A DNA stretch of 64,000 nucleotides from contig JAHFNC010000003.1 in the NCBI GenBank assembly GCA_023267535.1, positions 380-64,379 on the forward strand, in the 5' to 3' direction. The notes beneath the pieces are model-generated. The model was not told where the DNA came from, did not search any database, and saw only the letters and a list, made by a program, of their open reading frames with translations. Shown in pieces: positions 988 to 5,812 of the stretch. This stretch comes from a bacterium (GTDB lineage: Bacteria; Patescibacteriota; Minisyncoccia; Phycocordibacterales; UBA5272). The position numbers and the translations under genes are program-made. Each line of letters starts with the position of its first letter. Position 1 is the first letter of the stretch.

Positions 988-1022
988 AAAAACACGCGTA
1001 AACCTTATGTTTACGCGTGTTT
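988..1022. terminator. 15-bp perfect inverted repeat with 5-nt loop (aaaacacgcgtaaac-cttat-gtttacgcgtgtttt), likely bidirectional terminator after the 5S rRNA
   Basis: Perfect palindrome flanked by A and T runs, directly downstream (minus sense) of the 5S rRNA. Confidence 0.55.
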
Positions 1023-1037
1023 TTCTTTAAGTTCTTT

Positions 1038-1150
<113 letters not shown>

Positions 1151-1232
1151 AAAAAACTCAAAATGATTTAGTTTTGCCAAATAGCAAAACAAAATCACTT
1201 CTTGTTTTGTAAACCATTCATTTGAAAATGAA

Positions 1233-1344
1233 TGGTCGGGGTGAAAGGACTCGAACCTCCGACCTCTTGCCCGAAAGCAAGTGCTCTACCCACCCAGCAG
1301 GCCCTCTTTCGATGGACATGACAGATTTTCTGAGCTACACCCCG
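1233..1344 (-). tRNA. tRNA-like gene between 23S and 5S with an apparent ~35-nt insertion (about 112 nt total); anticodon not determinable by eye
   Basis: Minus sense shows a perfect 7-bp acceptor stem (CGGGGTG/CACCCCG), A73-CCA, a canonical T-arm (GGAGG-TTCGAGT-CCTTT) and D-stem halves GCTC…GAGC. The D-stem halves are separated by about 45 nt, and a 6-bp stem with a UUCG loop sits where the anticodon arm should be. Confidence 0.45.
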
Positions 1345-1626
1345 TTTTTTACAAAATTAAATTGAAAACAACACATCTGCCTCGTCTGCCAAATGCAGAC
1401 GGTGATAGGCATGTTTCCTAATAGGAATTCGGGTACTTAGTATGTCTCGGCTTAACACATTGCTATGCTTACACCTAACACCTATCAACGTAATAATCTC
1501 TTACGACCCTTCAACGAATACTAATCTTGAAGTTGGCTTCATTCTTAGATGCTTTCAGAATTTATCCATTCCCGACATAGCTACTGGGCGGTCCAGCTGG
1601 CGCTAGAGCCCACACACCAGAGGTCA

Positions 1627-1657
<31 letters not shown>

Positions 1658-1710
1658 ATCTTCTCAATATTCGAACGCCCGCAGAAGATAGGAAACCAAC
1701 CTGTCTCACG

Positions 1711-2027
1711 CATTGCTGTTTTACATCACTCCTTGGTTTCCAACCTGAGTGAACCTCTATTGCTAGAGGGATCGGACTATAGCATTCACTTATTTTTTAC
1801 TTAAGTGTATCAACGTTTAGTCTCTACGGGCTCTTTTATTTTCATAAATGATTCCCTCGGAATTATCCAATATGGACTTTCCCGATATTAGTCGATTTGT
1901 CTTCACATATCACTATGTGAAGCCGCCGTGATTGATGTCTTTTTGTTAAGTTTAGTCTTAACTCCTCGGGCTCAAACTAAGAGAAGTCAAAGTTACAAAA
2001 TATTTTCATATTATTCTGTAACCTTCA
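1711..2027 (-). other. group I intron in 23S domain V/VI (near E. coli position ~2590), no ORF
   Basis: It interrupts the contiguous conserved sequence GGGTT(T/C)A(G/A)AACGT|CGTGAGACAG. The 5' exon ends in U and the intron ends in G. R-like (AGAGACTAAACG, plus 1813-1823) and S-like (GCTATAGTCCGA, plus 1772-1783) core elements are present in the correct 5'-to-3' order. Confidence 0.6.
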
Positions 2028-2683
2028 CTCCTCTACGGTTTGAACCCAGCTCACGTATCTTTTTAAATGGCGAACAGCCATACCCTTGGTAGCTTCTCCA
2101 CCACCAGGATAAGATGAGCCGACATCGAGGTGCCGAACTGTGCCGTCGATATGAACTCTTAGGCACAACTAGCCTGTTATCCCCAGGGTAGCTTCTATCC
2201 GTTAATCTGCTCCTGCATCTAATGCAAAGAGTAGGTTCACTAGGACCCACTTTCGTGTCTGCTTGACATGTCCGTCTCACAGTCAAGCCAGCTTGTGCCC
2301 TTACACTATCGGCACGGTTTCCATTCGCGCCTAGCTGACCTTAATGTACTCCTCCGTTACTTTTTGGGAGGAAACCGCCCCAGTTAAACTCCCCGTCAGA
2401 TACTGTCTACGAACGTTTTTTCCGTTCATGTTAGCAAATGCCCCATTACAGATGGCTATTTCATTGTCGAGTAGATTACAGCCGAAACCATAAACATCAA
2501 ACCTCTCGCCACTATACTACGCAGTAAAGAAACATTTGCAATACCAAACTAGAGTAAAGCTCCTGGGGTCTTTTCGTCTATCTGCGGGTAACCGGCATCT
2601 TCACCGGTACTGTATTTTCACCGAGCTACTCCCAGAGACAGTTCCCCAGTCGTTACACCTTTCGTGCACGTCTGAACTTACCA

Positions 2684-2731
<48 letters not shown>

Positions 2732-2881
2732 GACGGGGGCTTATATCATCCAGCGCCGAAGCACCGCCGATATTTAACCTTCCCGCATTGGTCAGGTGTC
2801 ACCTCCTATACATCCACTTACGTGTTCGCAGGAAGCTGTGTTTTTGGTAAACAGTCGCTAGGGAAACTTTCGCTGCGGCCT

Positions 2882-3178
2882 CCATCACTTTATTTTCAAA
2901 GCAATGAAATCCATAGAGAATCATTTCCACCACACTGTATTTAATTACTTAAATACATTTTTTGTCCATACATTAGCTCTAATATATGGACTATTTGTCT
3001 CATTTTATTTTCAAATTCTCTAGGACCCTCACTTCACTTTCATAAATGAAGAAAAATGCTTTAGTAACGAGGAGCATAGAATTTTTCTAGGGAAAATGTA
3101 GATGAACTACATTGACCGACGAAAAATTCGTAGCGACAAAGTTAATGAAGTAATTTTGTTTATTTTGAACGCAAAGTG
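2882..3178 (-). other. AT-rich ~300-nt insertion in a variable 23S helix (E. coli ~1715-1745 region) that carries a copy of the dispersed 3'-element
   Basis: Conserved 23S sequence resumes on both sides, with only about 35 nt at this position in E. coli. The internal segment 3093-3165 matches the dispersed-element consensus. Confidence 0.5.
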
Positions 3179-3787
3179 ATGGAGGCAGATCTTATTGCTA
3201 ACTTACGATCGCTTTTTTGCCTAGTTCCTTTGGGAGATATCACTCGTTCGCCTTAGTCTACTCGACTTGAATACCTGTGTCGGTTTGCGGTACGGATTAA
3301 TAGAAATTTAAAGCATCTTCATATACCTAGATGATCTTTGCTTGCGCAAAGTAAAAGGCATATGAAGACGTTCTGTATTCACAGAATGTAGAGACTTTTC
3401 TCGGAGGCGTGCTTTATAAAGTTGAATCAGGTTGCCCATCATCTTCATGCGACACTTGGAATATTCTCGTACGGATTTGCCTATACAAGTTCCTCATGTA
3501 ACAAACGACAATCCAATAAGTCGCTTTATATACTACACCCCGTCATCCCATCACATTTCTACCAAGTTAAGGAATATTAACCTTATGTCCATCGGGTCCG
3601 GCGTTTGCCATCCCCTTAGGCCCGACTAACCCTTCGCTGAAAACCATTGCAAAGGAAACCTTATTCTTTCGGCGTGGGGGTATCTCACCCCCATTGCGGT
3701 TACTTGTGCCAACATTCGTACTTCCACACGCTCCACGGTGGGTTACCCCTTCCGCTTCAACGCAGAGTGGAACACTCTCCTACCGCT

Positions 3788-4171
3788 TGTGAACTTCATA
3801 GAGGAGGTGTATGGTCCTCGTAGTATAGGAATCCGCTCGCTTGTGTACAAAAATAGCGGATATGTCTTCGTTTAGGTTTGTCAGATTTGGAATCCAACAA
3901 TCTCACGCGATGACAGTGACCGGCTCGTTGCTCTAAGCATCGTCCTATATCGCCACAATTAAGTGGCCTACTAACACACACCTGTTGAAACAAGTTAAGA
4001 CGACCAAGCGTCTAAGTTCGCGCATGATATAACTCCGATTAGCGTTATGCCCTCCCCAAGGGACGGCAATACGACACACAGAATCAGTGATCCGCACTTA
4101 TTTTAGCTTTATCGCTTTTACTTGATTCGAGGTCGCATCTTATATTGATGCAATCCTCTATGAAGTTCACA
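3788..4171 (-). other. helix-45-type intervening sequence (about 350 nt) closed by an 18-bp perfect inverted repeat
   Basis: tgtgaacttcatagagga (3788-3805) is the exact reverse complement of 4154-4171. The flanks align to E. coli ~1160 (CCGAAGCTGCGG) and ~1190 (GGTAGGGGAGCG). Confidence 0.6.
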
Positions 4172-4857
4172 AACCCTCAGTTTCGGTGGTAGATTTGAGT
4201 CCCGATTATTTGTGGCGCAGAGTCTCTCGATGGGTGAGCTGTTACGCTTTCTTTCAATGATGGCTGCTTCTAAGCCAACATCCTCATTGTCAATGAAACT
4301 CCACCTCCTCGCTTACACTTAATCTACACTTAGGGACCTTAACTTGAGATCTGGGCTTTTTCCCTTTTGACCGACGGAGCTTCGCCCCCGTAGTCTTACT
4401 GCCGCGTTTTTAACTCTTGGTATTCGGAGTTTGATAGGTCATGCCGTATTTCTACTAGTCAAGACCTTCCAGTGCTCTACCCCCAAGAGGAACACACGAC
4501 GCTAGTCCAAAAACTATTTCGGAGAGAACCAGCTATTACCAGATTCGATTAGCTTTTCACTCCTTACCACAAGTCATCCAAAGGAGTCGTACAACCTAAT
4601 GGTTCGGGCCTCCATTTACCTTTCGGTAAACTTCACCCTGCTCATGGTAAGCTCATCTGGCTTCGGGTCCATAAGTAACGACAATAATTTCGCGCTATTA
4701 ACACTCGCTTTCGCTTTGGCTCCGTGACTTTATACCACTTAGCCTGCCGTTACCTATGACTCGTTGGCTCATTCTTCAATAGGCACGCAGTCGAGGTGTA
4801 AACACCTCTTCTACTCCTTGTAAATATACGGTTTCAGTTCTATTTCACTCCCCTTCC

Positions 4858-4901
<44 letters not shown>

Positions 4902-5812
4902 ACTCTTTAGATATTTAGCCTTGCCGGTTAGTTCCGGCTAATTCATCCGAGCTATTCGTGTCTCGAACTACTCAGGATAAGACATAAAAGAGAGATAAAT
5001 ATTTCGATTACAAGACTATCACTTTCTTTGGTGTTGCTTTCCAACAACTTAATCTATATTTACCTTTTGTAACTCTTCTAGAAATCTACATGTCTTCCCT
5101 ATAACCCCTCACACCAACTTTGCTTTCCAGTATTTTTACTGAACTTCAAAGTTGGTGTGAGGTTTGGGCTGCTCCGCTTTCGCTCGCCGCTACTTACGGA
5201 ATAACTATTGTTTTATTTTCCTCCGGCTACTGAGATGTTTCACTTCGCCGGGTGCGCATCTTGGGATTGCTCCCTAAGATCATACAACATTACTTGTATG
5301 AGGTTTCCCCATTCAGAGATCTCCGGATCGAAGGTTGTTAGGCACCTCCCCGAAGCGTATCGTCGCCTGACCACGTCTTTCATCGCTCTAAAGAACCAAG
5401 GCATCCACCGTATACTCTTAATTTTCCTATTAGGAAACATAACTATCACTTGTTATTTCAAACCGCTTCGAAATAACAATGTATTGTTTTCAATTTAATT
5501 TTTAACATCCATATCAAACTGCACAGACCCCAGGTCGTTAAAACTTCCTGGATAACATTTGGCGCAATTCGTATGGGATTCTATTGTCAAACTACATTCA
5601 TTCTGATTTTTACAAAAACAAAATCCGCCTTTGGCGGACCGAGCAAAACTAAAGTTTCGCGCAGACGCCTAGAGTTTTAGTTTTGTAATAGTTTTTATCA
5701 TTCAGTGAGTTTATCTATCCTATCAAAACGGGTAAATAAAGTCAAGAGAAAAAGAGCTTTTAAATTAAGACTTTTCTGTCTCTTAAAAAGGCCAAAAGAA
5801 AGCATAAGAAAA

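Follow-up and report, generated by a model that had tools for sequence, protein, structure and literature searches.

A non-decoding tRNA-like element derived from tRNA-Pro in the 23S-5S rRNA spacer of a Paceibacteria bacterium, and its putative role in rRNA processing

In a stretch of 64,000 nucleotides (nt) from a bacterial contig (JAHFNC010000003.1, positions 380 to 64,379; hereafter the window), the spacer between the 23S and 5S rRNA genes holds a sequence that resembles a transfer RNA (tRNA) gene with an enlarged D loop and an altered anticodon arm. What is this sequence, and what could it do between two rRNA genes? It occupies positions 1233..1344 on the minus strand, 112 nt including an encoded CCA, and its tRNA-like nature is supported by its sequence, a local match to the Rfam tRNA model, identical copies and orthologs. 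It is very probably a non-decoding, tRNA-derived element whose top half is under selection. With modest confidence, we favor the fuller reading that it is a tRNA-Pro-derived, non-decoding t-element, co-transcribed with the rRNAs and serving as a processing signal for tRNA enzymes. The processing role taken by itself is argued from analogy, and we place it at an even chance or slightly below.

Read 5' to 3' from window position 1344 to 1233, between 23S and 5S, the element parses as CGGGGUG UA GCUC [AGAAAAUCUGUCAUGUCCAUCGAAAGAGGGCCUGCUGGGUGGGUA] GAGC A CUUGCUUUCGGGCAAG AGGUC GGAGG UUCGAGU CCUUU CACCCCG A CCA. The acceptor 5' strand CGGGGUG (1338..1344), in which C1 pairs with G72, forms seven of seven pairs with the 3' strand CACCCCG (1243..1237), which is followed by the discriminator A73 (1236) and the encoded CCA (1235..1233), the whole 3' segment spanning 1233..1243. 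In the D arm (1283..1335), GCUC (1335..1332) and GAGC (1286..1283) pair at all four positions and enclose a 45-nt D loop (1331..1287), which keeps the GG doublets on its 3' side. The T arm, GGAGG UUCGAGU CCUUU (1244..1260), is placed by both the parse and the local Rfam match; its stem has five of five pairs, one of them G-U, and the variable loop before it is AGGUC.

The D loop contains an irregular hairpin of 13 bp (1292..1326; element positions 19-53), capped by a GAAA tetraloop at 1310..1307 in a fold with the cloverleaf enforced (-38.2 kcal/mol). From tRNA geometry, this insert of about 36 nt, which lies 5' of the GG doublets, would face away from the acceptor/T-arm side. The anticodon-arm equivalent, CUUGCU-UUCG-GGCAAG (1266..1281), is 16 nt long, 1 nt below the canonical 17. 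It contains five Watson-Crick pairs and a U-G pair closing the UUCG loop, or equivalently a 6-nt loop UUUCGG, and it carries CGG, a remnant of a proline anticodon. In no register of this arm is a 5-bp stem with a 7-nt anticodon loop obtained. An alternative D stem from the local Rfam alignment, GCUG/GAGC, was rejected: one of its positions is a G-G mismatch, and it puts the 7/7 acceptor partner at a distance of 46 nt. The stem GCUC/GAGC is preferred because the orthologs match it. The initial annotation had described this anatomy (a 7/7 acceptor stem, discriminator plus CCA, T arm, both D-stem halves, the GAAA-capped insert and the UUCG arm) and was right in every detail, leaving unstated only the strand, which is the minus strand.

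Is it, then, a tRNA gene? ARAGORN reports no tRNA gene in the whole window, and Rfam at its gathering threshold finds no tRNA in it. The tRNA model RF00005 matches only locally, over model positions 10-63, with 26.6 bits against a cutoff of 29 (E=0.0012 in a 291-nt search). These negatives are due to the insert and the short loop, not to the want of a tRNA-like fold. Compared with a canonical tRNA, the element has the 7-bp acceptor stem, the D stem and a T arm with a UUCRANY loop. It lacks an anticodon arm with a 5-bp stem and a 7-nt loop (Y32, U33, anticodon, R37, N38), its D loop measures 45 nt instead of about 7-11 nt, and neither a standard tRNA finder nor a curated score calls it.

A permissive, home-made cloverleaf scan returned a single match in the window, at the element site, against 0.27 matches per dinucleotide shuffle of the whole window; geometry alone is therefore weak evidence. 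A chance origin is nevertheless excluded by the location in a 270-nt rRNA spacer, by the identical copies and by orthologs at the same site in relatives. All 112 nt are identical in two independent assemblies (loci L001 and L002; loci of our set carry L numbers, and #1 and #2 distinguish elements at one locus), and the element is a real sequence, not an assembly artefact. An empty ARAGORN result had been foreseen by the initial annotation as a sign that the acceptor match might be coincidental; the result is indeed empty, but the comparative data show that the match is not a coincidence.

Relatives of the locus were fetched by synteny, using the gene for a 252-amino-acid (aa) protein and FtsW, which adjoin the 5S gene. 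One of them is L126#1, with the sequence CGGGGCG UG GCGC AGACUGGUA GCGC G CUUGC AUCAA GCAAG AGGUC GAUGG UUCGAAU CCAUU CGCCCCG A CCG. It has the same anticodon stem as the window element, CUUGC/GCAAG, lacks the D-loop insert and carries a 5-nt loop, AUCAA; by its sequence it is clearly orthologous to the window element. Its acceptor and T stems differ from those of the window element by compensatory changes. The acceptor pair U6-A67 is replaced by C-G in L126#1 and by A-U in L167, where G3-C70 has also become A-U. L167 is the third member with C1-G72 and A73, and UGG lies in the 8/6-nt loop of its 18-nt arm. Both L126#1 and L167 have a D loop of 9 nt, versus 45 nt in the window element, and MAFFT sets a single 36-column gap there. 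Directly after its CCG, L126#1 has a hairpin comparable to the one at 1213..1236 in the window. The L126 locus runs 23S, tRNA-like #1, tRNA-like #2, 5S, and that of L131 runs 23S, hairpin, a 124-nt tRNA-like element, a 72-nt tRNA-like element, 5S; the spacer of L129 has only a hairpin.

The comparison also points to the ancestor. When the insert-free core was compared with 294 ARAGORN-called tRNAs from unrelated loci, a tRNA-Pro(UGG) came out best, and the four tRNA-Pro of that collection were all among the first six. The element shows the tRNA-Pro signature C1-G72, A73 and AGGUCGGAGGUUCGA. The combination of C1-G72 and A73 is typical of bacterial tRNA-Pro and fits the identity requirements of prolyl-tRNA synthetase (ProRS). 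Proline anticodon triplets are left in the arms, CGG in the window element and UGG in L167; given these remnants and the tRNA-Pro genes as top matches, the element descends from tRNA-Pro. That the acceptor stem, T arm, D stem, D-loop GG and AGGUC variable loop have been kept, and a functional anticodon loop lost, is well supported.

With such an ancestry, the element could be a true tRNA-Pro gene, the D-loop insert being an intron whose removal yields a working tRNA. The perfect top half, the CGG in the loop and the agreement of A73 and C1-G72 with ProRS identity, as known in general, are all in line with this reading, and archaeal tRNAs with D-loop introns (L014, L018, L023, L052 and L119) were caught by a scan of contigs for the pattern TAGCTCAG-N25-55-GGTAGAGC-N20-40-GGTTCRANTCC. 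Those archaeal tRNAs, found in metagenome-assembled genomes (MAGs) of DPANN and Thermoproteota, likewise have a 25-55-nt insertion between a conserved UAGCUCAG and GGUAGAGC. They keep 7-nt anticodon loops, however, and depend on a splicing endonuclease and a motif of the bulge-helix-bulge (BHB) type, whereas the window element has no BHB, a bacterial host and a non-functional loop. Once the insert is deleted, the anticodon arm still measures 16 nt and its loop 4/6 nt, and the naturally insert-free L126#1 is equally non-canonical, with its 5-nt loop AUCAA. The insert itself is a plain irregular hairpin with 1-nt interruptions, not a 4-bp helix between 3-nt bulges, and the host is identified as bacterial by the bacterial large-subunit (LSU) rRNA model and by RecA, FtsK and EF-P. 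We consider a spliced tRNA-Pro very improbable, and the suggestion of the initial annotation that this might be an intron-bearing tRNA was abandoned on the same grounds: the arm of 16 nt after removal of the insert, the want of BHB or group I signs, and L126#1. Its other suggestion, a split or permuted tRNA, does not hold either, as the element runs uninterrupted and in the order of a normal cloverleaf.

Two specific intron types were rejected. For a group I intron, the insert of about 36 nt is too short (a core of about 200 nt or more, P3-P9, would be needed), and the model RF00028 has no match in 1140-1430; this search does work in the window, because it detects a group-I-like segment in the 23S gene. 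For an archaeal-type BHB intron, there is no motif at the insert boundaries, and the host is bacterial.

The origin of the insert is better explained by its distribution. Within our set, only the window element and L075 have a D-loop hairpin; L075 is a Parcubacteria MAG in which 23S, element and 5S follow in the same order. L133#1, the ortholog of L075, lacks an insert, and the inserts of the window element and L075 have no common sequence. Since each has an insert-free ortholog (L126#1 and L133#1) and the inserts are unrelated, at least two independent gains took place at the same site, on the 5' side of the GG in the D loop. The window insert has no second copy in the window at up to three mismatches. 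The D-loop hairpin is a lineage-specific expansion and not an intron. Among the matches of the pattern scan listed, most were truncated 5' tRNA fragments upstream of complete tRNA genes or archaeal D-loop-intron tRNAs, and L075 was the only true analogue in an rRNA operon.

The scan also brought up tRNA-like genes elsewhere. At many Patescibacteria loci (L012, L026, L037, L068, L070, L076, L078, L106, L116 and others), a truncated tRNA 5' fragment ending in a common motif, ..GTAGCTCAGTTGGTAGACCTGCCCGCC.., lies directly upstream of a complete tRNA gene; the recurrence of the motif points to a conserved leader element or to the scar of an integration. In a Xenococcaceae cyanobacterium MAG (JASJDB010000241.1; L087, 450-1000, minus strand), tandem tRNA-like genes of 120-127 nt have a common insert of about 50 nt (TATCCTKGTTCRYAACTTATCCTT..GGGTCG.AGAATTAGGGTTATCG), located in the anticodon region of three genes and in the D loop of one. 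ARAGORN misses all of them, Rfam scores them at 44-57 bits, and the insert looks small and intron-like or mobile. D-loop inserts of 30-45 nt together with non-canonical anticodon loops are present in tRNA-like genes of L030 (an Actinomycetes MAG), L062 (an Oscillospiraceae MAG, in a tRNA array) and L066 (an unclassified bacterium), none of them beside rRNA genes; D-loop expansion of non-decoding tRNA-like genes may thus be more widespread. Finally, the D-loop-insert tRNA of L027, labelled 'uncultured Pirellulales', closely resembles those of the Micrarchaeota-labelled L018, L023 and L096, and its contig may be mis-binned.

How common are such elements between 23S and 5S? A metagenome scan anchored solely on the 23S 3' end, and thus sampling without bias, yielded, together with other loci, 53 distinct spacers of 52-637 nt, and 12 of them contain tRNA-like elements, 15 in all. 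The initial annotation had called a 23S-tRNA-5S order uncommon, which is true in general; within the Paceibacteria lineage, this frequency shows otherwise. The top half of the elements is well preserved: the acceptor stem is complete (7/7) in 11 of the 15, the T stem (5/5), a UUCRANN T loop and the D-loop GG in 14 each, and G53-C61 is invariant in all. Taken together, the acceptor, D and T stems are 95.8% paired, and 14 of 16 pairs show double-sided changes; none of 500 shuffles reaches the observed values, and slid registers are only 42-49% paired. The anticodon arms, by contrast, are mostly still closed, stable stems but have loops of 3-6, 8 or 10 nt, or G33, or insertions of 30-95 nt. Not one of the 15 elements combines a canonical anticodon loop with a matching tRNA identity; L133#2 has a canonical-looking loop, UUCGCAG, but also a variable arm of about 48 nt and a mismatched identity. 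On 573 kb of surveyed rRNA loci, the only ARAGORN calls were these spacer elements, reported as 'SeC', '???', 'Asn(att)' and similar, while on 290 kb of other Patescibacteria loci, used as a control, it called 82 tRNAs, all 82 canonical. The 441-nt spacer of L148 is of another kind: about 190-400 nt after the 23S end comes an insert of about 250 nt (GGTGAAAGATGGCCGCAAGGCCATGACCGCCGGCGGG...), rich in G+C and apparently structured, with no Rfam match at E<=0.1.

These data bear directly on whether the element is simply a decaying tRNA-Pro pseudogene, a functionless former spacer tRNA in which the insert and the short anticodon loop are damage. Decay would account for the variously sized insertions and deletions in the D and anticodon arms, for the degraded acceptor stems of L136 (5/7) and of L159, L131#1 and L133#2 (6/7), and for the patchy occurrence among relatives, some of which have plain hairpins in its place; moreover, cloverleaf-like geometry alone is not rare by chance in this AT-rich window. 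However, the damage is strikingly one-sided, with nearly complete pairing in the acceptor, D and T stems against anticodon arms that are, without exception, remodelled or mismatched to the identity. These arms have also been re-closed rather than eroded, by UUCG and CUCA tetraloops and by stems of 7-8 bp, and the helices that flank the elements are conserved with compensatory changes. We regard a pseudogene as unlikely.

The flanking helices are a second regular feature of the set. In the window, a perfect hairpin, ACCAUUCAUUU-UC-AAAUGAAUGGU (1213..1236, minus strand), sequesters A73 and the CCA in both constrained and unconstrained folds. A 5' flank strand, UUUUGUAAA (1348..1356, minus strand), can pair with UUUACAAAA at 1213..1205, and this predicted 9-bp helix (-6.4 kcal/mol by duplexfold) would enclose the element together with its 3' hairpin. 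In 10 of 12 Nomurabacteria-type elements, a leader-trailer helix is significant (z = -2.2 to -6.8), with compensatory variants such as UAUAUG/CAUAUA, UAUGUG/CACAUA, UAUUUUG/CAAAAUA and GAUUUUAGG/CCUAAAAU; the 'CA' of the encoded CCA forms part of this helix in the relatives. Seven elements end 25-27 nt upstream of 5S.

A leader-trailer helix of its own for each element, as the rRNAs have, suggests an excised product over a mere cut site. The element could accordingly be a stable tRNA-like small RNA, excised in amounts matching the rRNAs and having a non-decoding function of its own, such as that of a ribosome-associated or assembly RNA or of an acceptor for non-ribosomal aminoacyl transfer. 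In this case selection would have kept the elbow and the acceptor, the recurrent expansions could be functional, and the CCA encoded in 9 of the 12 Nomurabacteria-type elements would make sense. On the other hand, the acceptor identity varies (C1-G72/A73, A1-U72/A73 or G73, G1-C72/U73), so there is no common aminoacylation identity; the CCA is shared with the flank helix and missing from L159, L075 and L133; the insert sequences are unconserved between lineages; and many close relatives lack the element. A stable small RNA appears to us somewhat less probable still than a pseudogene. Bolder, and quite improbable in our judgment, is the proposal that Paceibacteria operons encode a whole class of non-decoding tRNA-like RNAs, each excised on a leader-trailer helix of its own and accumulating as a discrete, rRNA-abundant species. 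Such an RNA would work at the ribosome, be it as an additional ribosomal component or in assembly, much as mitochondrial tRNA-Val/Phe came to be a structural RNA of the mammalian mitoribosome, and the expansions of D loop and anticodon arm would be functional expansion segments.

What favors the t-element is the choice of parts that have survived. The element has the tRNA-like top half (acceptor and T-arm stack, elbow) without a functional anticodon, and it sits in a polycistronic precursor beside an RNA whose end it would help to define. The retained parts are those that ribonuclease (RNase) P and the 3'-end enzymes recognize. It is because these parts are kept, and because the t-element of Haloferax offers an analogue, that a processing role is favored. 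A tRNA-like processing element within the rRNA transcript was also the third option of the initial annotation, and it fits best of the three, cleavage itself remaining putative.

The architecture of the operon can be followed on the minus strand. A promoter-like sequence, TTGACT-17-TAGGAT with a TG (5717..5745), identified by consensus match only, lies upstream of the 23S gene (1418..5431; bacterial LSU model of Rfam), which at 4014 nt far exceeds the 2925 positions of the model. A 23S trailer strand (1353..1375) pairs with the leader at about 5503..5480, as seen when the 5' flank of 23S is run against the spacer in duplexfold; this long processing stem, of at least 21 bp, extends beyond the terminal 23S helix and stops about 10 nt before C1344. 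The element follows, 88 nt upstream of 5S. Next comes a 5S-proximal hairpin (1161..1199), which precedes the extended helix I of 5S and whose base, AAGUGAUUUU/AAAUCAUUU, is homologous to the helix carrying L126#2. The 5S gene (1039..1148; RF00001, 57.8 bits) is followed just downstream by a palindromic, terminator-like hairpin (988..1024), which would mark the end of the 23S / tRNA-like / 5S unit. No terminator-like site was found between 23S and 5S.

In the mechanism that we propose for a t-element, transcription would start at the promoter-like site (about 5745), run through 23S, element and 5S in one precursor, and stop at the terminator hairpin (about 1000). Pre-23S would be freed when its long leader-trailer stem is cut. 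The L-shaped element would then be seen as a pre-tRNA: RNase P would cleave at the A1345/C1344 junction, and RNase Z or exonucleases, as the 3' activity, would trim near 1236-1233. The 5S precursor has an extended helix I of its own, and the 23S trailer would thereby be parted from it. The D-loop hairpin would be an expansion, neutral or structural in nature, that can persist since the element no longer has to decode.

Several observations weigh against this mechanism, whose processing step is drawn by analogy. Both 23S and 5S have leader-trailer stems of their own, and a tRNA-like signal is therefore not obviously needed. The distribution is patchy: relatives about 50% identical in the neighboring protein lack the element (L129, L200 and L207), and a plain hairpin occupies the same site in L199, as well as the window's own 5S-proximal site, where it stands on a base homologous to that bearing the second tRNA-like element of L126. 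Elements of this kind are therefore not essential for the release of 23S and 5S in the lineage. In the window, A73 and the CCA are locked in a perfect hairpin, and in most relatives the leader-trailer pairing includes the 'CA'; such a paired CCA/leader geometry would not be ideal for RNase P or RNase Z. The unconstrained minimum-free-energy fold is rod-like, at -44.3 kcal/mol against -38.2 for the cloverleaf. The stem segments for the covariation count were set by eye with a cloverleaf in mind, and because the elements descend from several tRNA species, part of the covariation is ancestral.

The closest known counterpart of a t-element at this position is archaeal. In Haloferax volcanii, according to the passages of PMC3296008 and PMC4326828 that cite Holzle et al. 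(2008, 2012), tRNase Z cuts a tRNA-like t-element that lies directly upstream of 5S, and both RNase P and tRNase Z accept t-elements as substrates. As described there, that element is, like ours, a non-decoding tRNA-like sequence in the 23S-5S spacer, and the proposed reuse of tRNA end-processing enzymes for rRNA is the same. It abuts the mature 5S 5' end in an archaeon, whereas the window element lies 88 nt upstream in a bacterium of the Candidate Phyla Radiation (CPR), and most 5S-proximal elements of its relatives lie 25-27 nt upstream. Unlike the Haloferax element as portrayed in those passages, the window element is clearly tRNA-Pro-derived and has an encoded CCA, a 36-nt D-loop hairpin and flank helices; its cleavage is putative. 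In bacteria, genuine tRNAs occur in rrn operons, in the order 16S-tRNAIle/Ala-23S or as distal tRNAs (PMC5179076). These are likewise co-transcribed with the rRNAs, and their excision helps to part the rRNA precursors, but they decode and stand mainly between 16S and 23S or after 5S, unlike the non-decoding element between 23S and 5S.

Other tRNA-like modules come from organelles and nuclei. In mammalian mitochondria, tRNA-Val or tRNA-Phe is a structural RNA of the central protuberance of the mitoribosome, where it replaces 5S, and it also decodes. The shared traits are a tRNA within an rRNA transcription unit and amounts matching the rRNAs; at the window locus, in contrast, 5S is present and nothing indicates an association with the ribosome. 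The mascRNA is a nuclear tRNA-like 3' module that provides a cut site for RNase P and RNase Z. Plant mitochondrial t-elements (PMC1920247) have tRNA-like folds with a degenerate anticodon region and cut sites for RNase P and RNase Z. In either case the cut sites set the ends of adjacent RNAs. Both are organellar or eukaryotic, both flank mRNAs or long non-coding RNAs, and neither has a D-loop hairpin expansion.

The remainder of the window places the locus in its genome. Homologs of the adjoining 252-aa protein are named Candidatus Nomurabacteria or Paceibacterota, and the host is a bacterium of the Patescibacteria (CPR), Paceibacteria or 'Nomurabacteria'-like. The nearest of these homologs are about 52% identical, and the L200, L201 and L207 loci lack the element; those of L203-L206 and L208 end before the spacer. 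The window also encodes RecA, FtsK, EF-P, SecY and ribosomal proteins, and no RNase gene was found in its 64 kb. Neither a 16S rRNA gene nor a canonical tRNA gene is present in the window according to Rfam and ARAGORN, and the 23S-5S operon is unlinked from 16S. The 23S gene carries about 1.1 kb of insertions, with a group-I-intron-like segment at 1944..1753 (48.8 bits against a cutoff of 50); similar sub-threshold group I matches occur in the 23S genes of L133, L136, L148, L162 and L199. Farther away (24618-52515, minus strand), an spc-type cluster (S3, L5, L6, S5, L15, SecY, Adk, Map) is broken up by very large open reading frames of 1073, 1495, 1511, 1719, 948 and 493 aa, most of them with a terminal PG_binding_1 or Ig-like domain. 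S5 and L15 adjoin each other (39817 / 39811), so that an L30 gene would not fit between them.

Processing elements resembling tRNAs have precedents in archaea, organelles and the nuclei of eukaryotes, and bacterial rrn operons commonly contain real tRNAs; full-text literature searches found no description of tRNA-like elements in the rRNA spacers of CPR/Patescibacteria. New here are the bacterial 23S-5S location, a diverse set that recurs across a CPR class, the flank helices, and the expansions of D loop and anticodon arm. For genome annotation, such elements are missed or mis-called by tRNA finders (as tRNA-SeC, tRNA-??? or tRNA-Asn(AUU) by ARAGORN) and could corrupt tRNA inventories of the CPR. 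They are also a natural experiment on recognition needs, with D-loop hairpins of about 35 nt and anticodon-arm insertions of up to about 95 nt tolerated. Maturation of rRNA in bacteria is poorly known beyond model organisms, and in the CPR, genomes are reduced, rRNA genes bear introns and ribosomes are unusual. If our reading is true, the recurrent set would give bacteria a first counterpart to the t-elements of archaea and organelles, with modules keeping only the parts that are seen by RNase P, RNase Z and other elbow-binding factors, and it would provide a directly testable model for the separation of 23S and 5S in these organisms.

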